Source: Candidatus Brocadiia bacterium
GTDB taxonomy: Bacteria; Planctomycetota; Brocadiia; CAIUPP01
Reading direction: 5' to 3'
DNA length: 62,806 bases
NCBI GenBank assembly: GCA_050015075.1
Contig: JBEKCB010000032.1
Span: 1-62,806, forward strand
The translations under genes and the position numbers were made by a program. Shown here in pieces: positions 9,005 through 60,739 of the stretch (the first letter of the stretch is position 1; the number at the start of each line of letters is the position of its first letter). Below the pieces are notes generated by a model. That model did not search any database and was not told the origin of the DNA. It saw only the letters and a list, made by a program, of their open reading frames with translations.

Positions 9005-10423
9005 TCACTCGAAAATCTTCCCCGGGTTAAGTATGTCGTTCGGGTCAAGCGCCTTCTTCAGGCGCTTCATCAGGTCGAGCGAGACTTCGCTGACGGAGTA
9101 CCGCATATATTGCTTGCGCTTGTGGCCGATGCCGTGCTCGCCGCTGATGACGCCGCCTAAGTCTTTCGTGACCTGGTACAGGTCGGCCAGGATGCGCGGC
9201 AGCATTTCGTGCCACTGTTCCAGGCTGTGCGCCGGGTTCTTGACGGGGGTGACGTGCAGGTTCCCGTCGCCGGCGTGTCCGTAACAGGGAATCTGGATGT
9301 CGTATTTCCTGGAGAGTCGGTCCAGTTCCGGGATGATCTTCGGGATGCTCGCCACCGGCACGCAGATGTCCTCGAGGCTCTGGTGCGGGCTGATGACCAT
9401 GAACGCCTCGGCGATGTTCCGCCGGACGCTCCAGATGCGCTCCTGCGTGGTGGCGTTGTCCGCGACGTAGACCTCGATGGCGCCGTTCTGCAGGCAGAGT
9501 TCGCCGGTGGCCTCGTATTCCTCCTCGAGCTGCGCGCGGCTGTTGCCGTCGAGCTCGATGAGCAGCATCGCCTCCGCCTGCTCGTACGGGATCCGCTCGT
9601 TGAGGTACTCGCATGAGGCGCGGGCGGAGCGTTTGTCCATGAATTCGATCGCCGTCGGTACCACGCGCGCGCGGGTGATGATCGTCGGCACCATGCGGAT
9701 GGCACTCTCGGCGTCGCGGAAGAGCACGAGCAGGTCCACGACGCGCGTCGGGCGCGGGATCAGTTTGAGGATGATTCTCGTGACGATGCCGAGCGTGCCC
9801 TCGGAGCCGACCATCAGGCCGACCATGTCGTAGCCGGTGACGTTCTTGACGAGCTTGCCGCCGAATTCGGCGATCTCGCCCTCGGGCGTGACGACCTGCA
9901 GGCCCAGCACGTACCGGCCGGTGACGCCGTACTTGACCGCCTTGCCGCCGCCGGCGTTCTCGGCGACGTTGCCGCCGATGAAGCAGCTCTGCAGGCTCAT
10001 CGGATAGCCGGCGAAGAACAGCCCGTACTCCTTGACCGCGGAGTCAATGTCGTTGGTGACGACGCCCGGCTCGACGACGACGACCATGTTGGCCGTGTCA
10101 ATTTCGAGGATGCTGTTCATCCGGTCGAGCGCCAGGACGATGCCGCCGCAGACCGGCACGGCGCCGCCGGAGAGCCCCGTTCCGCCGCCGCGCGGCGTGA
10201 CCGGGATGCGCGCGCGGTTGGCGAGCTTCATGATCGCCGCGATTTCTTCGGCAGTCCGCGGCCGCACGACCGCCTCGGGCATGGCGTGATACTGCTTCTC
10301 GGCGACTTCGTCGTGAGAGAATGGCTCGAGCTGCTCGGCATCGCCGTGGATGACGAACCGCGGGCCGACGATCTCCCGAAGCTGCGCAACGATCTCCGGC
10401 GTTACTCGATTGTACTTCGACAC
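9005..10423 (-). CDS. FAD-linked oxidase GlcD/LctD-type (probable ETF-coupled D-lactate dehydrogenase)
   Basis: PRGGGTGLSGG, IGGNVAENAGG..AVKYGVT, GHAGDGNLH and GEHGIG motifs; downstream of etfBA. Confidence 0.88.
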   Translation of the reverse strand: MSKYNRVTPEIVAQLREIVGPRFVIHGDAEQLEPFSHDEVAEKQYHAMPEAVVRPRTAEEIAAIMKLANRARIPVTPRGGGTGLSGGAVPVCGGIVLALDRMNSILEIDTANMVVVVEPGVVTNDIDSAVKEYGLFFAGYPMSLQSCFIGGNVAENAGGGKAVKYGVTGRYVLGLQVVTPEGEIAEFGGKLVKNVTGYDMVGLMVGSEGTLGIVTRIILKLIPRPTRVVDLLVLFRDAESAIRMVPTIITRARVVPTAIEFMDKRSARASCEYLNERIPYEQAEAMLLIELDGNSRAQLEEEYEATGELCLQNGAIEVYVADNATTQERIWSVRRNIAEAFMVISPHQSLEDICVPVASIPKIIPELDRLSRKYDIQIPCYGHAGDGNLHVTPVKNPAHSLEQWHEMLPRILADLYQVTKDLGGVISGEHGIGHKRKQYMRYSVSEVSLDLMKRLKKALDPNDILNPGKIFE

Positions 10424-10436
10424 GTTTTTACCAAGA

Positions 10437-10525
10437 AAGGAAATTAGGTGATTAGGTGATTAGGAAATTGGGCGACGCATGCTTGCTAAGGCCCAATGAC
10501 CTAATCTCCCAATTTCCCAATCACC
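10437..10525. repeat. Second 8-nt periodic ATT(A/G)GG inverted repeat element
   Basis: aaattagg tgattagg tgattagg aaattggg ... cccaatga cctaatct cccaattt cccaatca; overlaps the last codons of etfA. Confidence 0.78.
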
Positions 10526-11574
10526 GCGCTTTTTCGTCGTCGTTCTTCAATCTTCCGAATCAGCATCGGCAGGACTTCGAAGAGGTCCGCGACGATGCCG
10601 TAATCGGCCACTTTGAGAATCTGCGCGTCCGGGTTGCTGTTGATCGCGATGATGTGCTCGGCGGTCTTGATTCCGGCGAGGTGCTGGATGGAGCCGGAGA
10701 TGCCGGCGCAGAGATACAGCTTCGGCGAAACCGTTTTGCCGCTCAGCCCGACCTGGTGCGGATAGCTGATCCAGGCGCGGTCCACCGCATCGCGCGAGGC
10801 GCCGACGCCGGCGTTCAGCAGGGCGGCGAGCTGGTAGATCAAATCGAAGTTCTCGCGCTGCTTCAGCCCGCGTCCGCCCGAGACGACGACTTCGGCCTCC
10901 TGGATATTCGCGCTGTCGGCCGCGGCCGGCTCGAAGCTCAGCCGGCGCACGCGGCTCGCCAGGAGCTCCGCCGGGACGGACTCGCGGATCACCTTGCCGC
11001 AGCGGGATTCGTCGCGCGCGGCCGCCTTCATGGAGCGCGGCCGGACCGTGGCCATCTGCGGCCGGTGCGAGGGCGACTTGATGGTCGCCATGATGTTGCC
11101 GCCGATGGCGGGGCGGACCTGGAGCAAGTTGCCGGTGTCGGTCTCGATCTCCAGGTGCGTGCAATCGGCCGTCAGTCCCGCACGGCACTTCACCGCGACG
11201 AGCGGCATCAGCGTGCGACCCGTCGTGGTCGCGCCCGCGATGAGGATCTCCGGCTTGTGCTTGCGGATGAGGTGTTCGAGCGCGCGCGCGTAAGGCTCGG
11301 GCAGGAAGTGCTCCAGCGCGGGCGATTCGACCACGATCACCTGGTCGGCGCCTCGGGCGATCAGTTCCTGCAAGCCCGCTTCGCCGGTTTTTCCGAGCAT
11401 CACCGCCGAGAGCGGGACGCCGAGGCGGTCGGCCAGCCCGCGCCCGCGCGCGAGGAGTTCATACGAGATCGGCTGGACGGCGGCAGACCTCTGCTCACCG
11501 AGGATCCAGACGCCCTTGAACTCCTTGTTGCGCTCCGGGCGGACGTCCGAGGGCTTCGCTGCGGAAGCGTTCAT
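10501..11574 (-). CDS. etfA: Electron transfer flavoprotein alpha subunit
   Basis: GLTADCT, PQMATVRP, VSGGRG, QVGLSGKTV.P.LY.CAGISG..QH.AG. Confidence 0.93.
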   Translation of the reverse strand: MNASAAKPSDVRPERNKEFKGVWILGEQRSAAVQPISYELLARGRGLADRLGVPLSAVMLGKTGEAGLQELIARGADQVIVVESPALEHFLPEPYARALEHLIRKHKPEILIAGATTTGRTLMPLVAVKCRAGLTADCTHLEIETDTGNLLQVRPAIGGNIMATIKSPSHRPQMATVRPRSMKAAARDESRCGKVIRESVPAELLASRVRRLSFEPAAADSANIQEAEVVVSGGRGLKQRENFDLIYQLAALLNAGVGASRDAVDRAWISYPHQVGLSGKTVSPKLYLCAGISGSIQHLAGIKTAEHIIAINSNPDAQILKVADYGIVADLFEVLPMLIRKIEERRRKSAVIGKLGD

Positions 11575-12413
11575 GCCGTTCCGTCCGTTTCCGTCTTTCG
11601 CGCTTTCGCGTTTTCGCGGGCGAGCAAATCCAATTTTTCGAGGTACGCGACGAGCCCGTCCACGGCCTTTTCGAGGTCGGCCGGATCTTTCGGCGCGCGG
11701 ATTTCGCCGTCGCGGGCGACGCGAGGCGACTCGATCTTCACCACGCGCGTGGGCGAGCCTTTGAGCCCGATGGACTCCGGCGCGGCGCCGATCTCATCCG
11801 GTCCCCAGACCGGGATCGCAACCTTGCGGGCGCGCTGTTTGCCGCGCAGGGTCGGCATCCGCGGGTACGCGATTTCCTTGACGACGGTGAGAAGGCAGGG
11901 CGTCTGGATTTCGAGCGTCTCGTATCCGTCTTCGACCAGGCGTTTCACCACGACGGAGCTGCCGCGCCATTCCAGGATGGCGCTGACGTACGTCGCGACG
12001 GGGATGTCGAGCCACGCGGCGATGCCCGGCCCGACCTGGCCGGTGTCGCCGTCGGTGGCGCGCTCGCCGCAGAGGATGAGGTCATACGGGCCGATTCGGG
12101 AGATCGCTTTCGAAAGCGCATACGACGTCGCCCACGTGTCGGACCCGGCGAACGCGCGATGGGAGAGCAGCACGCCGTTAGTGCAGCCCATCGCGACGGC
12201 CTCGCGCAGCGCATCCTCCGCCTTCGCGGGACCCATCGAGAGCACGGTCGTCGTGCCTCCGGACTCGGCGAGCTGGATTCCTGTCTCGATGGCGTAGAGG
12301 TCAAGCGGGTTGATGATGCTCTCGACGCCTTCGCGGATCATCGTGCCGGTCTCCGGGTCCATCTTGACCTTGCTGGTTTCCGGGACCTGCTTGATCGGGA
12401 TAATGACGTGCAT
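11571..12413 (-). CDS. etfB: Electron transfer flavoprotein beta subunit
   Basis: IKQVP, INPLD..A.E, FAGSDTWATS, DGDTGQVGP and G..GSPT.V motifs. Confidence 0.93.
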   Translation of the reverse strand: MHVIIPIKQVPETSKVKMDPETGTMIREGVESIINPLDLYAIETGIQLAESGGTTTVLSMGPAKAEDALREAVAMGCTNGVLLSHRAFAGSDTWATSYALSKAISRIGPYDLILCGERATDGDTGQVGPGIAAWLDIPVATYVSAILEWRGSSVVVKRLVEDGYETLEIQTPCLLTVVKEIAYPRMPTLRGKQRARKVAIPVWGPDEIGAAPESIGLKGSPTRVVKIESPRVARDGEIRAPKDPADLEKAVDGLVAYLEKLDLLARENAKARKTETDGTA

Positions 12414-12539
12414 TAGACCCGTCCGGTGGTTTTGTCATAAGCCGCGCTGCTACTGCATGTTACAACGCGCTGGGTTCGTTTTTTCAAATGCCCCTTGCGC
12501 GTCCTATCCTCTTACCCTTCAGCATCTTGCGACATTTAT

Positions 12540-12568
12540 CTTATAACATAATATTTCTGATCTGTCAA
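12540..12568 (-). promoter_or_regulatory. Putative sigma70 promoter for etfB-etfA-lctD
   Basis: Minus strand TTGACA-N17-TATAAG with extended TG, in an AT-rich gap. Confidence 0.6.
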
Positions 12569-12605
12569 GCGTAAACTGCCCTTGTGCGAATAAATTTTCC
12601 AATTT

Positions 12606-13907
12606 TTATTTATGCCCGTACGTCGCGCTGCCGCGGGTGCGGAGGATGAGCATCGGCCCGTCCGGGACGACAGCCCAGCGCGCGCGCTTCTCTCCGAACC
12701 GGGCGAGCAGTTCGGCGACGCCTTTTTCGACGGATTCCACGCAGCGGAAATGATAGCGCTCCAGTTTTTCCCTGGGAACGCCGTCGGTGTAAATCCAGGT
12801 CGGATTCCGGCGCATGACCTGGTACACCTCCTGCGCGCACCACTGGTCCGGGATGAAGAACTCCTTGTCCATCAGCCGCTGGAGGAACCGCGCGGGCGTG
12901 TCCACCATGTTGAAAACTTCCTCGCACTCGGGATTGCCGACGCCTTCGTAGCAGGCCGAGGCGGTGAGGACGATGCCGCCGGTCTTGAGGCCGGGTGTTG
13001 CAGCGACCATGCTCTTGACGGTCTGGTAGAGGTTGCAGTCGGCCGGCGCGCCGGCGTTCGTGGTGACGATGAAATCGAGCGGCTCGTCGAGCGTCCGGAT
13101 GCACTGCGCGGCGAGGAACTCGCAGCCGCGGCGGTGCGCCTCGACGGGATGCCCGGCGAAAATGCCGGTGATCTTCTTCGACAGGCTCAGCGTCACGTTC
13201 ACCATGAAGTCCGCGCCGGTGCGGTTCATGATCTCGAGCGCGGCCTCGTGGAACGGATTGCCTTCGAGGACGCCGTAGGCGACCTTCCCGTGCGCGACCA
13301 TTTCCGGGCCGTGCATGTACTTGACGGTCTCGATGGAGGAAATGCCCGGCAGGATCGCCTTGCGGCCGCCGGAGAAACCCGCCCACATGTGCGGCTCGAT
13401 GAACCCGGTCAGGATTTTCAGGTCGGCGTCGAGGTACTGCCGGTTGACGTACACCGGCACGCCGTCGCCGATCTTGCCGACGAAGGCCATGTCCGCCTCG
13501 CGCTTGCAGAAGTGGTTGACGACGCGGTAATCGCGAACGATTTCCTCGCCGAGCAAATGGACGGCCTCGGCGCCCTCGTTCGGGCGATGGGTGCCCGTCG
13601 CGATCAGGAGGAGGACTTTCTCCCGAGCGATGCCGGCCTCCTCGAGCACCTTCAGTATCGGCGGCAGCAGCGTGGCGTTCGGCACCGGCCGCGTGATGTC
13701 GCTGACGACGATGCAGGCGGTCTTCCTGCCGGCGGCGATCTCCGACAGCGGCAGCGAGCCGATCGGCTCGCGCAGCATTTTGCCGATGGACGCCCTGGGG
13801 TTGCGGAGCACGGGCGCCTTTTCGGGTTCCAGCACGCCGACGAAGCCGGGCGTCTCCGGCAGGTTGACGTTCAGCCCGCGAAAGCCATATTTCAATTTTA
13901 TTTTCAT
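12606..13907 (-). CDS. larA: Nickel-pincer lactate racemase family protein
   Basis: SDITRPVP, ATGTHRP, EPH..AGFSGG.K..LPGI and NLYQT.K motifs. Confidence 0.88.
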   Translation of the reverse strand: MKIKLKYGFRGLNVNLPETPGFVGVLEPEKAPVLRNPRASIGKMLREPIGSLPLSEIAAGRKTACIVVSDITRPVPNATLLPPILKVLEEAGIAREKVLLLIATGTHRPNEGAEAVHLLGEEIVRDYRVVNHFCKREADMAFVGKIGDGVPVYVNRQYLDADLKILTGFIEPHMWAGFSGGRKAILPGISSIETVKYMHGPEMVAHGKVAYGVLEGNPFHEAALEIMNRTGADFMVNVTLSLSKKITGIFAGHPVEAHRRGCEFLAAQCIRTLDEPLDFIVTTNAGAPADCNLYQTVKSMVAATPGLKTGGIVLTASACYEGVGNPECEEVFNMVDTPARFLQRLMDKEFFIPDQWCAQEVYQVMRRNPTWIYTDGVPREKLERYHFRCVESVEKGVAELLARFGEKRARWAVVPDGPMLILRTRGSATYGHK

Positions 13908-14015
13908 GCTGTAATTCTAACGCGAAGGCAACCCGAATCGCAACGTCTCGACGGGACCGGCGCGCGAAAGGCAGTCTTCAGGACGGACGGCTGCGGCAAG
14001 GGACCGCCCTTGCCC

Positions 14016-14083
14016 TGAACATGGATTCGGGCGTTCCGCGATCTCCCGGCTTGGGATTCCAGGTTCGAGTCCTAGATGCTCAG
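14016..14083 (+). pseudogene. Degenerate tRNA-like sequence (Gln-like 3' end)
   Basis: T-arm CCAGG-TTCGAGT-CCTAG; 3' strand ATGCTCA-G pairs 6/7 with TGAACAT at 14016; D and anticodon arms non-canonical. Confidence 0.35.
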
Positions 14084-14159
14084 TTTCTCATTCCGGTCAA
14101 ACCTGGCCTTTGAGATGGTCGTGGCAACCGACGCCAAGGCAGGTCATGCTTCCCGGAAC

Positions 14160-14984
14160 TCAGGGATCACAACCTCTTTTCACATTCTCGGCAAGGATCT
14201 CCCCGGCGCCAGAAAGCCAGATCCTCCAAGCCGGCTCGAAGTCCTTCTGGTCTATCCCTGCCGTCCGGAATACGTCGCCATCAGCGCATGTTGACACTAT
14301 GCGCCGGATGGTATCGCGTCCATAATAGGACCCCATGAACATCACCAGCGTCCAGCCCCAGACATATGCATCCTTTACGGCCTTGCGCGGCAACGGACCA
14401 TCGCCATCGGGCACCACATCAATTTCAACGAGCGCGGGAACGTGATTGGCGGCAACGCAACGACGAACCTCCTCCAATTCCGGCGAGTCGCGCCAATGGT
14501 CGGACAGGTACATCGCAAGCCCCTCGCTCCACCACCGGCGCACCGCCTCGCAGTTGGGAGAGAGGTACTCCTCAACGATATGGGTGGCCTCGTGGGCGAT
14601 CAGCCGGCGGTAGTCTTCCGGCGAATAGGTGTTGTAGTCCTTCTCCCACACGCGAGGCGACAGGACGACCAGATCGGTGCGCTGGGGTAGAGCTATGCGC
14701 GAGGGACGCGACGGCACCTCAATCTCTATTTGGAGCACCTCGCGCACACACCGGTCGAACTCTGGGCGGTTGGGTGTCAGGATTAACCGCACCGGAGGAA
14801 ACGCCTCCGTCAGGCCGAAGTATTCACACAGAGACTTAAGCGCCGCCCCAAGGGCATTGCAAGTTTCCTGGACGAACGGCTCGTCCTCACCCGTGTATTC
14901 CATGAGTAGCTCGGCGAGGCGTATAGTGTGGTACTCAGGGTCGCTTTGGCCTGCTCGGAACTGCGTGTATTCAGGGGACACCAT
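14160..14984 (-). CDS. Putative zinc metallopeptidase (gluzincin / peptidase MA-like)
   Basis: AHEATH HExxH followed by WWSEGLAMY; start 14984 or 14999 lies just after repeat module A. Confidence 0.65.
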   Translation of the reverse strand: MVSPEYTQFRAGQSDPEYHTIRLAELLMEYTGEDEPFVQETCNALGAALKSLCEYFGLTEAFPPVRLILTPNRPEFDRCVREVLQIEIEVPSRPSRIALPQRTDLVVLSPRVWEKDYNTYSPEDYRRLIAHEATHIVEEYLSPNCEAVRRWWSEGLAMYLSDHWRDSPELEEVRRCVAANHVPALVEIDVVPDGDGPLPRKAVKDAYVWGWTLVMFMGSYYGRDTIRRIVSTCADGDVFRTAGIDQKDFEPAWRIWLSGAGEILAENVKRGCDP

Positions 14985-15005
14985 GCTCTCACCATACATA
15001 ATTAA

Positions 15006-15212
15006 TCTGGGTTTCCCATTTGACCGTCCTTCCGAGGACAATCCGCACGCAAACATGAAATTCTACGCTTAGAGTGCCTGCAGTCAATTGCTTTTTCGGT
15101 TGTTCTGGAAAACGATACGCCCACGCGCGTCCTTTGTGCGCCAAATGGGAACAATAAGCCGGAGCGGTTTGTCAACCGACCTATTTGGCCAAGGGTTTGC
15201 TTCAGCCGAACC
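15006..15212 (-). repeat. Repeat module copy A (upstream core, promoter, hairpin, terminal motif)
   Basis: -35 TTGACT 15087-15082, N16, -10 TAGAAT 15065-15060, N16, hairpin 15043-15022, then AAATGGGAAACCCAGA. Confidence 0.8.
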
Positions 15213-15265
15213 TCGCCTCAAAGGCGTTGTCGGCCGGCCGCGTGCTATTCTTCGCCTGCCACGAT

Positions 15266-15826
15266 TCAAGCGCCGCTGGCAGCACTGTATCTTATGGCAT
15301 GCATCTGTCTGGTCATGACCATCCTGCATACGTCCGTCGCAGTGTCGTCCCGGTCGAACCCAAGCGAGCGGAGCAGGTGCTGTCCAAGCAGATTGTCGAC
15401 GGCAACATCGTCGGTCATCAGGCGCCCTCCAACTCGACCAAAGAAAAATGCGAGCAGCGCCAGAATTGCATCTTTCGCATAACCGTGACCACGCTGCGTG
15501 GCAACAACCTTGACATTCAGAACGGCAGATCGTTCCTTCGAATCCCACCGATGAAAGCTAATCTCTCCGATGGGTGTATGATCCTGAGTGAAGATGAGGC
15601 AGTAGCAGTTTGCCGGGCCGCCGGGTGCTACCATATGTGTGAACCACTCTCTTGCCTTCGGCTCAGGGAACTCCACGGGGCCGCCAACCAAGGCCATGGT
15701 CTCCAGATCGCCCCAGAGCGCGCGGATGAAGGATAGCTCATCGAGATGTGGAAGCCTGAGATAGACCTTCCGTCCATGGAGGACTTCATTCGATGCGAGA
15801 TGGTTGCTCGGTCCTGTATCGTTCAT
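15266..15826 (-). CDS. GNAT acetyltransferase (RimJ/RimL-like)
   Basis: V.LR, PIGEISF, QRGHGYAKDAI and N.....L.SLGF motifs. Confidence 0.85.
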   Translation of the reverse strand: MNDTGPSNHLASNEVLHGRKVYLRLPHLDELSFIRALWGDLETMALVGGPVEFPEPKAREWFTHMVAPGGPANCYCLIFTQDHTPIGEISFHRWDSKERSAVLNVKVVATQRGHGYAKDAILALLAFFFGRVGGRLMTDDVAVDNLLGQHLLRSLGFDRDDTATDVCRMVMTRQMHAIRYSAASGA

Positions 15827-15833
15827 GTTTCAG

Positions 15834-15985
15834 CCGGGATTTGCCATTTGACCGTTCTCGAAAGTACAGTCTGCATTCGAAAATCAGATTGTACGCTGAA
15901 GGCGCTCGGTGTCAAGCGGTTTCACGGCCTTCAGGAAAGCGGCACGCCCAGGAGTTGCCCTCGCGCGTTTGATTGGAAGAAATGT
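15834..15985 (-). repeat. Repeat module copy E
   Basis: -35 TTGACA 15915-15910, N16, -10 TACAAT 15893-15888, N16, TTCG-loop hairpin 15871-15850, then AAATGGCAAATCCCGG; GNAT ATG follows within 10 nt. Confidence 0.8.
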
Positions 15986-16029
15986 GTCGGTCAAAGACGC
16001 GGTTGCAAGGGCTGCATAATGCCTGATAC

Positions 16030-16200
16030 AAATCTTCGGGGAATTGTCCGTCAAAATATGCGTAAGCCGATATTCTGTAATAGGATACGCCCGCGCGCGT
16101 TCCTCGCGCGCCTGACTGGAACGAGAAGCCGAAGTGGTTTATCGTGGGACCTATTTGGGCACGCCCTCGCTCCCGTCGAACGTCGCCGTCCTGATGATCG
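16030..16200 (-). repeat. Repeat module copy B (promoter decayed, no gene attached)
   Basis: Core aligns without gaps to copy A over about 110 nt; TTGACG at 16054-16049 but no good -10, hairpin or terminal motif. Confidence 0.7.
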
Positions 16201-16247
16201 CCTCGAAGAGGCAAAAGAGAGAGAACTTCCGCTGTTATCTCCTGATC

Positions 16248-16487
16248 CTACCGGGTCTGGAAGACCAGAAGATACGGAACAGCCTTGTGCCCGTCGGTGT
16301 CCGTGAAGCTGGTGTATGGCGGGGAGTTGAGCCAGATAACGTACGTCTTCTTCGGCTCAAGCTTGACGTCCACCCCACAGGTCTTCTTGTCCTCCAGATA
16401 CCTGGGCTTCCCTACGATCTGGGGGAATGTGTCCTTCGATATCTGCACCCAGGCCCAATTCCCGTCCGTCATCGGCTTGCTGAATAT
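16248..16487 (-). pseudogene. 5'-truncated Ig-like (Big/SbsA-like) domain fragment
   Basis: FSKPMTDGNWAW...GKPRY..DKKTC.V.VKLEPKKTY.IWLNS...PYLLVFQT; lacks an N-terminus and begins right after the -10 of module C. Confidence 0.55.
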
Positions 16488-16620
16488 AGATTTTACGCTC
16501 AAATTCGTAGCGGTCAAGAGGTTCCCCGGCTCTCCTGGAAAACGACATGCCCACGCGCCCCTCGCGCGCCTGACGAGAATAATTGAGCTGAGGTGTTTGC
16601 CGAATGGCCGATGTGGCCGG
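16488..16620 (-). repeat. Repeat module copy C
   Basis: -35 TTGACC 16517-16512, N16, -10 TAAAAT 16495-16490; core CTCCTGGAAAACGACATGCCCACGCGC on the plus strand; hairpin and terminal motif absent. Confidence 0.75.
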
Positions 16621-16681
16621 CCGTGGTTGAAGCGGATTCCGCGCTGGGACGGCGCTGGAGAGATCGCCGACGAATCGCCGG

Positions 16682-17944
16682 TCAACGCGGCGACGCCGCC
16701 GGCTCGGCTTCGACGACGACGCGGAATTTCTGGCCGGCGTAGCCCTTCTCCGTGATGAACTCATGCGTGCCGATGGACCATTGCGGCTGGAGAATGCCCC
16801 GGCCGCTGCGCTGGACCTGGGCGGCGTCGCCGGCGGGCGGCGGGTAATACGGGTCCGTTTCGCTGTGGCGCGCGTTGTACATGCCGCGGTCGCCGGTGAT
16901 TTCCCACCAGCAACTGGGCATGTCGTACAGCCCCCAGGCATTCGGCTGCCGCGATTTTACCGTCAGCGGCGCCTTGAAACCGCCGTCGCCGCCGCTGAAC
17001 TGGTCCTTGTACTTCTCCTGGAAGCCGGGGTTTGAGGTGCCGACGCGGGCGACGTATTCCCACTCGGCGTCGGTCGGCAGGCGGACCTTCCGCGAGTTTT
17101 TCTCCGAGAGCCGCTTGCAGAATTCCTCGATGTCGGCGAAACGCGGATCCTGGACCGGAAGCTGCGGGTCCTTGACCGTGCTGGGATTGACGCCCATGAC
17201 CGCCTGGTATATTTCTTGCGTCACCGGAATTTCGGCCATGTAGAACGGGCGCGTCAGCGTCACGGCGTGCGGATACTCTTCCACGAAATACGGCCACATG
17301 TAGAACGGCGTGCCCATCAGAAATTTCCCGGGCGGGATGCACACGCACTTCAGCGTCAGCCTGTCGGTGATGCGGAGGATCAGCGGCTCGCGGCCGGGCC
17401 GGACGAAAGGAACGTCCGGCGCGAGCATTCTGTCCGGGTACTTGAGGTGGGCCGGCTCGATCCGGGCGGCGGTGAGCCACCGCTTGCCGTCCTTCAGGGC
17501 GACGACGCCGGTCACGGCGCTGGCTGTGGCGGGCATGCAGTAATGGTTCGGCGGGCGGTTCTTGTCGTCCTTCAGGGCGGGGCTGTCGCGAGGGATGTAG
17601 TACTTCAACCGAGCGGTGAACTGGTCCATCAGCTCTTGCGCGGCATCGGCGTCGAGGCCCTTGTCCGGGTAGAATTTGGCCATGATTTTCTCCACCTCGG
17701 CCCGGACTTCCGGCGTGCCGTCAATGGCATAGAGGACCAGGAGATGATCGTCGGGCTTGGGATCGGCGATGCAGGCGCCGTTGCAGACCAGGCTGCCCTT
17801 GAGCGTGACCTCAACGCCGCCCGGCAGCGCTTCCGCCGCGGGAGCGCTTCGCGCCCAAACGGCGCAGCCGAGCGCGGCGAGAACCACCGTCCAAGCACAG
17901 GCCTTCGCAAGCACGTTCGGCTCTTGCAAGCCGGAATTTCCCAT
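16682..17944 (-). CDS. Secreted FGE-sulfatase (SUMF1/EgtB/PvdO) domain protein
   Basis: IPPG.F.MG, RLPTDAEWEYVAR and PNAWGLYDM motifs; hydrophobic signal-like N-terminus; start uncertain (ATG 17944 or a nearby GTG). Confidence 0.8.
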   Translation of the reverse strand: MGNSGLQEPNVLAKACAWTVVLAALGCAVWARSAPAAEALPGGVEVTLKGSLVCNGACIADPKPDDHLLVLYAIDGTPEVRAEVEKIMAKFYPDKGLDADAAQELMDQFTARLKYYIPRDSPALKDDKNRPPNHYCMPATASAVTGVVALKDGKRWLTAARIEPAHLKYPDRMLAPDVPFVRPGREPLILRITDRLTLKCVCIPPGKFLMGTPFYMWPYFVEEYPHAVTLTRPFYMAEIPVTQEIYQAVMGVNPSTVKDPQLPVQDPRFADIEEFCKRLSEKNSRKVRLPTDAEWEYVARVGTSNPGFQEKYKDQFSGGDGGFKAPLTVKSRQPNAWGLYDMPSCWWEITGDRGMYNARHSETDPYYPPPAGDAAQVQRSGRGILQPQWSIGTHEFITEKGYAGQKFRVVVEAEPAASPR

Positions 17945-18160
17945 TGGGCTGTCCGCCAAAGGACAGTCGAGTTGCAAGCAGGAGATTGTACTCTCGAATT
18001 GTCCGGTGTCAATCAGCTTCTCGGCTGTTCTGGAAAACGACACGCCGATGCGCGGCCCGCAAGCGTCTGACTGCGGTGAGAATCCCGAGTGGTCTTGGTT
18101 TTCCCAGTGACCGATATGACCAAGTTCTCATTCCTGTCGAACCCGGTCGCCGTGATGATC
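17931..18160 (-). repeat. Repeat module copy D
   Basis: -35 TTGACA 18012-18007, N16, -10 TACAAT 17990-17985, N16, hairpin 17968-17947, then CAATGGGAAATTCCGG. Confidence 0.8.
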
Positions 18161-18403
18161 CGGCGCAGCAGGTCATGACGATGCGCATCGAATCACTGGG
18201 AAAACGAGGTCTGGCCCAATACCCCGAATCTGTCCAAGCTCGGCAACACGTGTTGACGCCGTTAAACACTCGCACGACGTTATGCCATCGTCGTCAACGA
18301 AAACCTCGAAACGGATATTCAGACGCTGGAACTAAACGCCTTCGTGGTAACAGGTTACGGACCGGCGGGACCGGATACGATTTGTGCGCGTTTTAGTTAC
18401 AAG

Positions 18404-18418
18404 TGGAATGATATTTGC
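18404..18418 (+). promoter_or_regulatory. Putative sigma54 (-24/-12) promoter of the PEP-CTERM gene
   Basis: TGGAATGATATTTGC = GG-N10-GC; GTAAC-AG-GTTAC palindrome about 50 nt upstream. Confidence 0.5.
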
Positions 18419-18485
18419 CGTGCCGTTCAACGGAGGCTCTTTATGCAGGCGCATTGGGGCGGTTTCTTTTCAGGAGGGGGGGGGC

Positions 18486-19508
18486 ATGAGTGAAATGCGG
18501 GGAATTCGCAGGTACGGGGTATGGCTGCTGGCCGTCGCGGCGCTGATTGGAGTTGTCCAGACTCGAACGGCGCTGGGTGTTCCGACGCTCTCGTCGCCTT
18601 ACAGCGCGGATTACACTCTGCTTGACCTGGGAGCAGTGCCGGGACTTTCGACGCCTTACGGGGGACTGACTCTCCTGTCCGGCGATCTCAACACGCTGTT
18701 GATTGGCGGCAGCGCCAATACAACGAGCGGCACGATTGATTCGATCAGTGTTGTGCGCGGCGCGGGAAACCATATCACCGGGTTCTCGGGCACCGCGACG
18801 CAGTATTCGACGGCGCCGGGCATCACCTCGGGCGGGATTGACGGCGGATTGGACTATGCGCCGAACGGCGACCTGTTCTACACGAGCTATTCTGACAACA
18901 GCATCGGCGAAATCAAGCCTGGCAGCACGTCGCCGGACAAGCAAGTGGCTCTGACTCCGCTCGGGATTGCGAGTTCGGTCGGCAGCTTGCTATTCGTGCC
19001 GGCCGGCCAACCGGGCGCGGGTGACCTGAAAGTGGTCTCTTACAACGGGAACGTCTGGTACAATGTTCCCTTCACTTCGGATGGGTCGGGAACGTACAAT
19101 CTCAGCGCGCCCACGACGACGGTTTCCATCACCGGCGGCCCTGAGGGCGTCCTTTACGTGCCATCAGGTTCGACCGACTTTTCAACGTCAAGCATTCTGC
19201 TGTCCGAGTACGGCGCGGGTGCTGTGCAGGCGTGGCAGGTAGATGCGAACGGCGACCCGATCGTCGGCACCAACGTGGACTTCATCACGGGACTGTCGGG
19301 CGCGGAAGGGGCCTTCCTCGATCCGGAAACGGGCGACTTCTTATTCTCGACGTTCGGCGGTGGCAACCAGGTGTACGAAGTGCAAGGATTCGTTGCTCCG
19401 GCGCCGCCTCCTTCGGGAGGAGTCCCGGAGCCGGCGACTGTGACGTTGCTCGGCATCGGCCTGGCCGGTCTGATCGGGCGACGGATGCGGAGGCGTAACG
19501 GCAATTAG
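18486..19508 (+). CDS. PEP-CTERM sorting domain surface protein
   Basis: Signal peptide, Gly/Ser/Thr-rich body, C-terminal VPEPATVTLLGIGLAGLIGRRMRRR; AGGAGG RBS. Confidence 0.9.
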   Translation: MSEMRGIRRYGVWLLAVAALIGVVQTRTALGVPTLSSPYSADYTLLDLGAVPGLSTPYGGLTLLSGDLNTLLIGGSANTTSGTIDSISVVRGAGNHITGFSGTATQYSTAPGITSGGIDGGLDYAPNGDLFYTSYSDNSIGEIKPGSTSPDKQVALTPLGIASSVGSLLFVPAGQPGAGDLKVVSYNGNVWYNVPFTSDGSGTYNLSAPTTTVSITGGPEGVLYVPSGSTDFSTSSILLSEYGAGAVQAWQVDANGDPIVGTNVDFITGLSGAEGAFLDPETGDFLFSTFGGGNQVYEVQGFVAPAPPPSGGVPEPATVTLLGIGLAGLIGRRMRRRNGN

Positions 19509-19756
19509 CCGGAGTCGGGATTCAATTGATTCGCGTTCGCGCCGCGCGGTGTCTTCCTGAGAGACAGCGCGCGGCGCGTCTGTTTTAATAATACAGTTTT
19601 GCAGGAAATCTCGCTCCGTTGCAGGTCCGGCGCCCTCGCCCGACGGCCTTTTCAACAGCCCCGGAGTTCTGGGGATACCATACCCAACTCATTCTTCTAA
19701 TCGCGTATCTCCTCGGAGTTCCCTGAGTCTCGTGTACTTTATAGCGAACCGTTGAC

Positions 19757-20947
19757 TCATTCGGCCTTGACGGCCGCGGCCACTTTGCGGCCGAGGGTTT
19801 CGCAGTTCAGGAGATCGGCGGCGGTCGGCTGCCATTTGGCGCTGACGCCTTCGGCGGCGAGCGGGATGTTGCACGCCGCCAGGTGCGCCTCGATCTGCTT
19901 GACCGATTCGCCGCTCCAGCCGTATGAGCCGAACGCCGCGCCGATCTTGTTCTGGAACTTGAGGCCCTTGAGGTCCTCCAGGATCGGCGTGATCGCCGGC
20001 AGCAGGCCGTTGTTCAGCGTCGGCGATCCGATGATGACCGCCTTGGCCTTGAAGACTTCCGTCAGCACGTCGTTGCGGTCCGAGACGGCCATGTGGAAGA
20101 GCTTGAACGGCACGCCTTCGGCGGCGAGTCCTACGCCGATCGCTTCGGCCATCCGGCGCGTCGCCTCCCACATCGTGTCGTAGAGCACCACCGCCGACGG
20201 CTCCGGTTTCTGCGCGGCCCATTCCTGGTACTTGCGGACGATCTGCACCGGGTCCTTCCGCCAGATGACGCCGTGGCTCGGTGCGATCATATCGATCCGC
20301 AGGTCCAGCTCGAGGACTTCCTCGATCTTCTTCGTCACGAGCTTGCTGAACGGCGTGAGAATGTTGGCGTAGTACTTGATCGCCTCCTGGTGGAGTTCCG
20401 CATCGTTGACCTGGTCGTTGAACCGGAACGCCGTCGCGTAATGCTGGCCGAAGGCGTCGTTCGGCATGAGGATGTTCCGCCCGGTGAGATAGGTGAACAT
20501 ACTGTCGGGCCAGTGGAGCATCGCCGCCTCGATGAAGACGAGTTCGTCGTGGCCCAGGCGGATGCTTTCGCCGGTCTGGACCGGCTTGAGCTTCCAGCGC
20601 TGGTGATAATGTCCCGGCAGGCTTTCGGCGCCGCGCTTCGAGACGACCACGGTGGCCTGCGGGCAGAGCCGCATCAAGGCCGGCAGGCTGCCGGAATGGT
20701 CCGGCTCGGAATGGTTGGCCACGATGAAATCGATCCTGGCCGGATCAATGACCGCGCGGAGGTTCTCGATGAATTCATCCTGGAACGGTCCCCAGACCGT
20801 GTCCACGAGCGCGACCTTGTCGTCCACGATCAGGTACGCATTGTACGTCGTGCCGCGATGCGTGCTCAGCTCGTAGCCGTGGAAATGGCGGATGCCCCAG
20901 TCCACGACGCCGACCCAGTGGACGCCTTTCTTCAGTTCCGTGCTCAT
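19757..20947 (-). CDS. fprA: Flavodiiron protein (FprA, metallo-beta-lactamase plus flavodoxin)
   Basis: GTTYNAYLI, NHSEPDHSG, LHWPDSM, DAFGQH, APSHG and AFGSYGWSGE motifs. Confidence 0.93.
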   Translation of the reverse strand: MSTELKKGVHWVGVVDWGIRHFHGYELSTHRGTTYNAYLIVDDKVALVDTVWGPFQDEFIENLRAVIDPARIDFIVANHSEPDHSGSLPALMRLCPQATVVVSKRGAESLPGHYHQRWKLKPVQTGESIRLGHDELVFIEAAMLHWPDSMFTYLTGRNILMPNDAFGQHYATAFRFNDQVNDAELHQEAIKYYANILTPFSKLVTKKIEEVLELDLRIDMIAPSHGVIWRKDPVQIVRKYQEWAAQKPEPSAVVLYDTMWEATRRMAEAIGVGLAAEGVPFKLFHMAVSDRNDVLTEVFKAKAVIIGSPTLNNGLLPAITPILEDLKGLKFQNKIGAAFGSYGWSGESVKQIEAHLAACNIPLAAEGVSAKWQPTAADLLNCETLGRKVAAAVKAE

Positions 20948-60651: not shown

Positions 60652-60739
60652 TATTTGGCTTTGCAACTGGCTGGCCATGCCGTACCTACGACAAACCGTT
60701 CCGGCTCCTCTTTCCGATCATGCGCGCGAAGGAGACTTT

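Follow-up and report, generated by a model that had tools for sequence, protein, structure and literature searches.

Predicted promoter-leader repeats of one planctomycete genus stand ahead of unrelated genes, and blocks of repeat plus gene differ between sister genomes

How do genes of unrelated families come to stand in one row, each behind a copy of the same promoter-bearing module? The question is raised by contig JBEKCB010000032.1 (assembly GCA_050015075.1; contig C32, 62.8 kb) of a Candidatus Brocadiia bacterium, a stretch of 62,806 nucleotides that we call the window; coordinates given with no contig name are window positions. A sequence-only reading of positions 14160-18160 had described five such modules and proposed a gene-capture and expression platform, integron-like in layout. 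We analysed this locus within its genome (G000, a metagenome-assembled genome (MAG) of 4.64 Mb in 66 contigs, 93.6% complete, with 3.8% estimated contamination) and against a sister genome of the same genus (G001, also a Candidatus Brocadiia bacterium MAG, about 92% identical across the flanks of the array). The reported modules are real, and they are more general than that reading held. They are built from two dispersed repeat families, a predicted promoter-leader repeat, R, and a hairpin-bearing upstream element, L; R faces the next gene at short range, the expansion of both families is restricted to one genus, and blocks of R plus gene differ between the sister genomes. On balance, we consider it probable that R is a portable promoter-leader of this genus, and that units of R plus gene are shuffled by recombination among copies of L and R.

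The spread of the modules over the genome carries the first part of this explanation. A BLAST search of G000 with module D, the rightmost of the array, hit 19 places at E<0.01, spread over many contigs, and a profile of four window copies matched 83 places at E<=1e-3. The profile hits split into two halves, R and L, each of which also occurs alone. With iterated profiles (E<=1e-3), G000 was found to hold 126 copies of R and 38 of L, the hits of both together lying on more than 40 contigs. The idea of a dedicated array did not survive this result, since the profile scan that had been proposed to see whether hits cluster in arrays returned dispersed copies. Only 3-4 of the 126 R copies and 5 of the 38 L copies are in the window, although the array is the densest L cluster of the genome, and R clusters moderately (22 pairs of neighbours no more than 3 kb apart; 1000 random placements gave 9.7 on average and never more than 19). 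Furthermore, BLAST placed the nearest relatives of the array copies outside the array; as the array copies are not each other's nearest relatives, the array does not stem from local tandem duplication.

R comprises an A-rich stretch, a -35 box TTGACA, a 17-nt spacer, a TAnAAT box and a leader of about 55 nt, in which lie a core close to TGGGAAATCCCGG and a potential hairpin of 8 bp. In a test for sigma-70 promoters, TTGACA/TATAAT-like hexamers, for which a spacing of 16-18 nt is expected, were present in the R columns as well as in the window modules. A same-strand open reading frame (ORF) of at least 60 amino acids follows 125 of the 126 copies, at a median gap of 15 nt (10th to 90th percentile, -16 to 90). 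The copies are about 70-82% identical, and their similarity spans about 95 nt, the promoter spacer included. The copies form two subfamilies, set apart by changes that are linked between promoter spacer and leader, which argues for descent from master copies rather than convergence. In the copies that we call type ii (for example C10:5682 on the minus strand, and C23:28067 and C25:40868 on the plus strand of G000), a 9-bp inverted repeat (GGATTCTGA, 3 nt, TCAGAATCC) lies across the -10 box and has an operator-like look. Outside the window, 10 of 17 sampled R-headed genes matched a Pfam family (3-keto-disaccharide hydrolase, NHL, MFS, FeeM, PAS, HEAT, T2SSE, histidine kinase, GH43, and one weak match below cut-offs), and 7 matched none. 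Two tandem paralogues of about 460 aa on contig C6 (29418-30993 and 31852-33450, about 81% identical) each have an R of their own, an example of R duplicated along with its gene.

L is about 97 nt long, with a sharp 5' edge and a central GC-rich palindrome. Roughly half of its copies have an R within 150 nt downstream, and the others precede promoters with a different leader. The 7-bp hairpin of L is paired in 88% of cells and shows compensatory change: 4 of the 7 pairs are altered on both sides, against 1.0 in shuffles (reached in 0 of 500), and the covariation score is 0.241, against 0.169 +/- 0.020 in shuffles (again reached in 0 of 500). Since many of the pairs are G-U, in the gene sense only, a DNA site fits the hairpin less well than an RNA structure that closes the upstream transcript at its 3' end. 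We rejected L as a small gene, because the two frames that are open in most copies are expected at this GC content, and the column entropy by phase (0.62 / 0.85 / 0.73) gives no clear codon pattern. Also rejected was a coding remnant at the 5' extension of L, which looks like a protein C-terminus, yet no long frame ends there at six copies. Rfam gave no match at E<=0.01 in five other module-bearing loci. Several L copies (C12:14212+, C44:13258-, C9:60462+, C9:61747+ and C25:26922+ of G000) precede a promoter with another shared leader of about 100 nt, which starts TACAAT(G/A)CTGTCGG and had no Rfam match in the two loci scanned (L016 and L012); it may be a second leader family.

The second part of the explanation rests on the comparison of the sister genomes. 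We examined 49 R copies at 41 loci of G001 (the best-scoring R hits plus the locus of an FGE-sulfatase gene; not a random sample) against G000. In 12 of them R and the downstream gene were kept and the upstream flank was not, in 4 the upstream flank alone was kept, in 6 both flanks were present in G000 at different places, and in 9 neither flank was found there. Thus 22 copies, or 55% of the 40 informative ones, are at a synteny break. Control windows of the same span from these loci, at least 300 nt from any R or L, gave 394 collinear, 77 broken and 166 neither, so that 16% were broken; the enrichment of 55% over 16% is overstated by an unknown factor because these windows are imperfect controls, which overlap, lie near R hotspots and are mostly intragenic, whereas breaks are naturally intergenic. 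Conserved blocks have their edges concentrated at the 5' border of R (several at -15 to +12 nt), with others at the R 3' edge, inside L or farther away. The block of R plus gene is the commonest unit of change; in one case, an 843-nt block of this kind stands in place of 100 nt. Base-by-base cases also show the parts separately. At locus L117 of G001 a 1.2-kb gene sits right behind the leader core, bounded by the 7-nt repeat ATCCCGG and followed by a degenerate partial leader, and at locus L107 one orthologous promoter occurs with and without a leader of about 50 nt. Promoter, leader and L are therefore separable. Breakpoints were found at the R 5' edge, within L, within the leader and behind its core, and this variation in position argues against a single site-specific crossover.

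We then turn to the array itself. It holds five same-orientation modules on the minus strand (14991-18160) and a sixth fragment (14071-14160), and the order on that strand is as had been described: D > FGE-sulfatase gene > C > short Ig-like ORF > B > E > GNAT > A > HExxH peptidase > F > LarA-like gene. Its features are as follows.

12606-13907, minus strand: LarA-like gene of the lactate racemase family (Pfam Lar_N 3.8e-62, LarA_C 2e-22).
14071-14160, minus strand: fragment F, a copy of the 5' extension found on some L elements (repeat family D5, alignment).
14160-14999, minus strand: putative MA-clan zinc peptidase (HExxH), 279 aa (Pfam Peptidase_MA_2 2e-5, under the curated cut-off).
14992-15103, minus strand: module A, R part, predicted sigma-70 promoter and leader (covariance model 91 bits; nhmmer 1e-17).
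15097-15229, minus strand: module A, L part (15097-15191) with 5' extension (nhmmer L profile 9e-23; alignment).
15266-15826, minus strand: GNAT acetyltransferase gene, 186 aa (Pfam Acetyltransf_3 8.8e-11).
15820-15931, minus strand: module E, R part, predicted promoter and leader (covariance model 96.7 bits).
15930-15994, minus strand: module E, 3' half of an L (nhmmer with the L profile, positions 41-92 matched, 9e-5).
16067-16197, minus strand: module B, L element with 5' extension (nhmmer 5e-23).
16248-16472, minus strand: 3' remnant, 74 codons, of a Big_5 Ig-like gene (the full 140-aa gene is in G001, Big_5 6.6e-8).
16473-16640, minus strand: module C, L (16528-16621), predicted promoter and truncated leader (promoter scan; L profile).
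16682-17944, minus strand: FGE-sulfatase family gene, longest frame 420 aa (Pfam FGE-sulfatase 1.9e-21).
17917-18028, minus strand: module D, R part, predicted promoter and leader (covariance model 93.8 bits).
18022-18160, minus strand: module D, L part (18022-18122) with 5' extension (nhmmer 2e-15).
18384-19508, plus strand: PEP-CTERM protein gene, divergent from module D (Pfam PEP-CTERM 1.1e-5).

The plus-strand core that had defined the modules was recovered at 15102, 15929, 16532 and 18027 with 0-3 mismatches, and none of 100 dinucleotide shuffles matched it. The fifth place, 16072, has no core within three mismatches; a module is nevertheless there, as the profile of the other four found it (16197-16070, E 1e-16) and a repeat finder also recovered it (families D3, D4 and D6). 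By motif, the copies thus beat shuffled controls. They are homologous and non-coding, with one predicted promoter for each gene, and by Pfam the genes behind them are unrelated to one another, all as reported. Not all five are full modules: A and D have both L and R, E has R behind half an L, B has L only, the upstream half of a module with no R-type promoter or leader behind it, and C is L and a promoter whose leader is truncated after about 15 nt, so that the R profile falls below threshold there. F is the L 5' extension only, directly behind the peptidase stop codon, and belongs to a repeat family (D5) with members at 14071-14120, 16150-16199 and 18111-18160. A further partial L lies far from the array and on the opposite strand (60669-60732, plus; profile positions 1-64, E 6e-13).

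Modules D, C, E and A hold the region's top four promoter-like sites, all on the minus strand and each aimed at the next gene; these match 10-11 of 12 consensus positions with a 16-nt spacer: TTGACA-16-TACAAT in D (-35 start 18012, -10 end 17985; 11/12), TTGACC-16-TAAAAT in C (16517, 16490; 10/12), TTGACA-16-TACAAT in E (15915, 15888; 11/12) and TTGACT-16-TAGAAT in A (15087, 15060; 10/12). The region has 8 promoter-like sites, against 1.5 +/- 1.3 in shuffles. As for the close spacing between module end and gene start, the peptidase and GNAT genes begin 4 and 5 nt past the module; the longest FGE frame departs from this pattern, with an ATG inside the module D leader (the G001 copy was called at 412 aa). 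The lower GC content that had been noted by eye holds for 14000-16500 (0.54-0.61, against 0.62-0.70 in the flanks) and not for the FGE gene (0.64-0.66). A test for known structured RNAs with Rfam 15 gave no relevant match at E<=1 over 13000-19500. Between the LarA-like and peptidase genes, a T-arm-like string, GGTTCGAGTCC, with a flanking partial stem lies at 14040-14085 on the plus strand, at the left edge of a segment absent from G001. It was rejected as a tRNA-derived attachment site, since ARAGORN calls no tRNA in the window.

Does this locus itself show turnover? The LarA-like gene is a conserved anchor beside the array, 92% identical and syntenic in G001. There, position 13972, upstream of this gene, is joined directly to 16185, the 3' flank of the Big_5 gene, which is complete (140 aa); the reported truncated Ig-like gene is indeed a remnant. 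The shared stretch runs over 16185-16484, where homology stops. After the Big_5 gene, G001 has a 497-aa gene of no family, and next comes a flavodiiron-type gene, which matches the window from 19757 onwards, and G001 differs over its 2.3 kb between the points corresponding to 16484 and 19757. Neither R, L, the peptidase gene nor the GNAT gene was found at the orthologous G001 locus. G000 accordingly has two extra segments: 13973-16184, with F, peptidase, A, GNAT, E and B, and 16485-19756, with the rest of C, FGE, D and the PEP-CTERM gene, the latter standing where G001 has the 497-aa gene and the 5' half of its Ig-like gene. In G001, FGE is on another contig (C14:44890-46287), 92% identical to 16674-18073 and with its own L and R upstream. 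This shared block runs from mid-L (18073) to 8 nt past the stop codon; TPR/PMT_2 genes lie on one side of it and a DUF6785 gene on the other, and because this last gene was the single neighbour matched in G000, no empty site could be defined. Cassette turnover, which a comparison of strains had been proposed to look for, was thus observed between the sister genomes, in that G001 lacks the peptidase-GNAT block, has the Ig-like gene whole and keeps FGE with its module elsewhere. The 497-aa gene of G001 (L093:4813-6306, minus strand) has its nearest G000 relative, 84% identical, on another contig (C6:162378-163818), and an R copy at C6:162224 adjoins that relative.

Repeats of this kind confuse assemblers, so that mis-assembly or contamination of a 66-contig MAG with some estimated contamination must be considered; indeed, Logan contigs break at module A (15161-15190). 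Such an artefact is hardly credible here. A 34-kb contig of the Joint Genome Institute (JGI) is 100% identical over 11911-20826, and an independent one over 10269-16813, while in three more peat runs Logan contigs span LarA-F-peptidase, A-GNAT, GNAT-E-B-Ig-C-FGE and D-PEP-CTERM with 0 differences, leaving the FGE interior as the only junction unbridged by them. Some of the supporting metagenome samples may be the MAG's own source. In addition, the family is spread over dozens of contigs and is just as abundant in G001. The array is not an assembly artefact. The stretch is present in 24 peat or wetland metagenome runs. Within FGE (17600-17730), contigs of four peat runs share a block of about 12 substitutions, so that the field holds a second allele or strain. 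Alternative read joints (14083>16044, 15859>16102 and others) have 30-letter sides, which often come from repeats, and were not used.

We also surveyed the distribution of the parts. By covariance model, with 92 candidates scored in each of G000 and G001, R has at least 91 copies in G000, at least 86 in G001, 5 in G002 (a second genus of the family), 0 in G003 (a third genus) and 0-2 in the others of 40 relatives. Over 132 genomes of the class, R was found in at least 28 copies in each of G000 and G001, in 5 copies in G002 and once in each of four genomes; 125 had none. BLAST hit L 23 and 15 times in the two congeners and not once in 39 other genomes. As to the cargo, the peptidase occurs in 2 of the 132 genomes (G000, and G002 with a 30%-identity match) and the GNAT in G000 only, and a DNA-level comparison with G001 gave neither. 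Apart from this, the closest GNAT relatives come from JGI metagenomes; they are 56-60% identical and lie on low-GC contigs that carry no R or L. By their sequence distribution, peptidase and GNAT look foreign to the lineage; given the rarity of both in the class and the GNAT relatives with neither R nor L, foreign genes seem to sit behind a module that is largely confined to the genus. Among viral contigs, exact matching, a weak test, gave 0 matches to the leader-core motif or the L-core string. Two further dispersed repeats were seen in the flanks of R loci of G001, one at L111:2692-2835 (about 145 nt, about 90% identity, more than 20 places in G000) and one at L106:24-117 (about 85 nt, 80-90%, more than 30 places). 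The genus seems rich in short repeats.

Besides the overstated enrichment, several points weigh against a portable R that moves with its gene. The remaining 18 of the 49 sampled R copies are collinear with G000. R-like elements, in 1-5 copies, occur in one more genus of this family and in another family of the class, so that R is older than its expansion. Promoter and leader are both present in these elements, which stand ahead of a serpin gene and a DUF1559-type gene; given such low-copy relatives, R could be a conserved regulatory site. The promoter activity of R is predicted purely from consensus matches. For the leader hairpin there is no covariation beyond shuffles (75.0% of cells paired against 74.2%; reached by 94 of 500 shuffles). 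The 81% pairing of the hairpin itself is attributed to sequence conservation alone, and RNAalifold gave no consensus structure for the leader, so that the hairpin is putative, as is any function of it as RNA. In some copies an ATG with a good Shine-Dalgarno-like stretch gives the leader a five-codon mini-ORF (MGNPG-type). It was rejected as a defining feature because it is not conserved: the core is present in 74 of the 126 R copies, 36 of these have an ATG, and 9 have the five-codon frame. Profiles of the leader alone and the promoter alone gave 59 and 47 hits and have low power, and most cases of a leader with no promoter from such short profiles plainly had one. Finally, both genomes are fragmented MAGs of 91-94% completeness, and gene starts followed an ORF heuristic, with no gene caller used.

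Some of these points speak for a regulon, in which R would be kept by selection as the signature of a common regulator of more than 100 genes and the modules would have no special mobility. A dimer that binds DNA might be this regulator, or a protein that binds RNA, such as CsrA; the copies would stem from old duplications, and the differences between genomes would be ordinary gene gain and loss. The operator-like repeat over the -10 box of type ii would suit the former; the GGA motifs in and after the leader hairpin, together with a CsrA gene in the genome, would suit the latter, and both the collinear copies and the low-copy elements of the second genus and second family agree with a conserved site. 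However, we think this explanation unlikely. The similarity over about 95 nt includes spacer positions that regulators rarely constrain and is divided into linked subfamilies, the genes served share no common function, genes that are absent from the rest of the class carry R, and R edges coincide with synteny breaks. The regulon is compatible with a portable promoter-leader as to function, and the two differ only in how the copies spread.

If units of R plus gene do move, what moves them? G000 has 7 tyrosine recombinase (PF00589), 3 serine recombinase and 2 Y1 transposase (PF01797) genes, all on contigs other than C32, and none of these 12 adjoins the arrays examined. The earlier remark that no recombinase was in view was borne out: no searched family matches the 62.8-kb contig. 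For the integron integrase (TIGR02249), G000 gave eight partial matches, none on C32, the best of which reached 85 bits where the cut-off is 265, and left the family-specific middle of the model unmatched. We found no match to rve or DDE_Tnp_1 anywhere in G000; insertion sequences are often missing from MAGs. The repeat finder gave no terminal inverted repeats that pair module ends, and no constant target duplication was seen at the junctions read. Since these searches were negative and the junction positions vary, ordinary recombination is favoured over a site-specific mechanism, an argument from negative evidence in two draft genomes.

One possibility is integron-like capture, in which R would be a landing site and the L and leader hairpins cassette sites for an unrecognised recombinase. 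Of the integron likeness first claimed, the layout and the turnover were upheld: there are single-gene units, each with a promoter, and every gene is followed by a hairpin element; selection maintains pairing in the L hairpin, the cargo looks foreign, and the L117 insertion sits exactly behind the leader core with its 7-nt repeat and degenerate partial leader. The likeness of mechanism was not upheld, given the low integrase score, the lack of any recombinase or transposase gene on the window contig or beside the arrays examined, the dispersal of the modules, breakpoints at several positions of L and R, and G-U pairs that fit a gene-strand RNA rather than a DNA site. We regard this possibility as very doubtful. 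A broader form of it, that R and L are cis-sites of an undescribed gene-capture system dispersed over the chromosome, strikes us as distinctly improbable. Promoterless genes would then be joined behind the leader core, and units of promoter plus gene exchanged at L hairpins, by an unrecognised recombinase or a templated repair route; if true, this would be an integron-like plug-in expression platform with no integron.

Alternatively, R, L or both might be miniature transposons of the MITE (a miniature transposable element with inverted repeats), REP (repetitive extragenic palindrome) or Correia type, moved in trans, their outward promoters incidental. High copy number, an expansion mainly in one genus, subfamilies, the sharp L 5' edge and the presence and absence of a leader at the one orthologous promoter of L107 are all in keeping with this, and Correia, ERIC and REPIN elements have been named as promoter-bearing repeats (PMC3575422). 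Yet neither terminal inverted repeats nor target duplications were seen at the junctions read, and 125 of 126 copies are aimed at a gene and stop shortly ahead of it, a pattern not expected of random insertion. Matches to rve and DDE_Tnp_1 are lacking, though insertion sequences may be unassembled in this MAG, and the two Y1 genes have no L, R or leader match at E<=1 within about 1.5 kb; the link from REPs to RAYT transposases was thus rejected, as the palindromes flank neither PF01797 gene. REPs lie mostly downstream of genes and often form inverted dimers (PMC3733652). A miniature transposon therefore seems to us very improbable.

Returning to the portable promoter-leader, we envisage the following course. 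R would combine a near-consensus sigma-70 promoter with a leader that ends a few to tens of bases before the next start codon, and so would drive or tune expression of the downstream gene, while L may act as a transcribed terminator or insulator for the preceding gene. New or relocated genes would gain expression by joining to an R, probably through homologous or microhomology-mediated recombination among L and R copies and with no dedicated enzyme. The window array would be a hotspot beside the LarA-like gene where four units have accumulated, two of them with genes apparently foreign to the class. This bears on an old open question, namely where a gene that arrives by horizontal transfer finds a promoter and a translation leader that work. 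By our estimate about 3% of G000 genes, including genes with no relatives in the rest of the class, share one portable promoter-leader, and promoter acquisition could be tested directly with time series of metagenomes, MAGs from long reads and reporter assays. Few genetic tools exist for planctomycetes, and R is also a candidate for a natural expression cassette in them. In annotation, such repeats give spurious ORFs and contig breaks.

Finally, we compared R and L with known systems; in the literature, we found no description of such modules in planctomycetes. Like integrons, the array has single-gene units, a hairpin-forming element after each, unit turnover and foreign-looking cargo; unlike them, it has no IntI, no common Pc promoter and no attI. 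Integron cassettes are promoterless, arrayed at a single locus and served by one common promoter at attI, whereas here four separate near-consensus promoters serve one gene each, and R and L are dispersed genome-wide. The attC sites of integrons are imperfect inverted repeats with R''/L''-L'/R' boxes and a GTTRRRY core; neither GTTRRRY nor RYYYAAC was seen at L ends, judged by reading alignments. Correia elements of Neisseria, of about 100-150 nt and more than 100 copies, supply promoters to neighbouring genes, bear terminal inverted repeats, duplicate a TA target and insert in either orientation. R resembles Correia elements and MITEs as a dispersed repeat of more than 100 copies with predicted promoters for neighbouring genes, but R and L have no terminal inverted repeats or target duplication, R always faces the next gene, and the junctions read show replacement or 7-nt microhomology rather than a constant duplication. 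The L core is like REPs and their composites (BIMEs; PMC3733652) in being a short GC-rich extragenic palindrome downstream of genes and probably transcribed; L differs in its length of about 97 nt, with long conserved unpaired flanks, and in occurring singly, in one orientation and always ahead of a promoter. The nearest described concept for R is that of putative mobile promoters (PMPs; Matus-Garcia, Nijveen and van Passel 2012), highly similar upstream sequences before unrelated genes whose means of spread is unknown, defined by at least 80% identity over at least 50 nt upstream of unrelated coding parts (PMC3575422). Module D and C10:38498-38590 are 82% identical over 93 nt ahead of unrelated proteins, and the L of module A and C9:61612-61705 are 81% identical over 94 nt; most other module pairs are below 80%. 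As with PMPs, similar non-coding sequences precede unrelated genes in one genome and are tied to no known mobile element. According to a commentary on them (PMC3575422), most PMP families are pairs at about 92% identity, whereas R has 126 copies at about 70-82%, and R further differs in including the predicted -10 box and a conserved leader, in its separate partner L, in the turnover of whole blocks and in its foreign-looking cargo.

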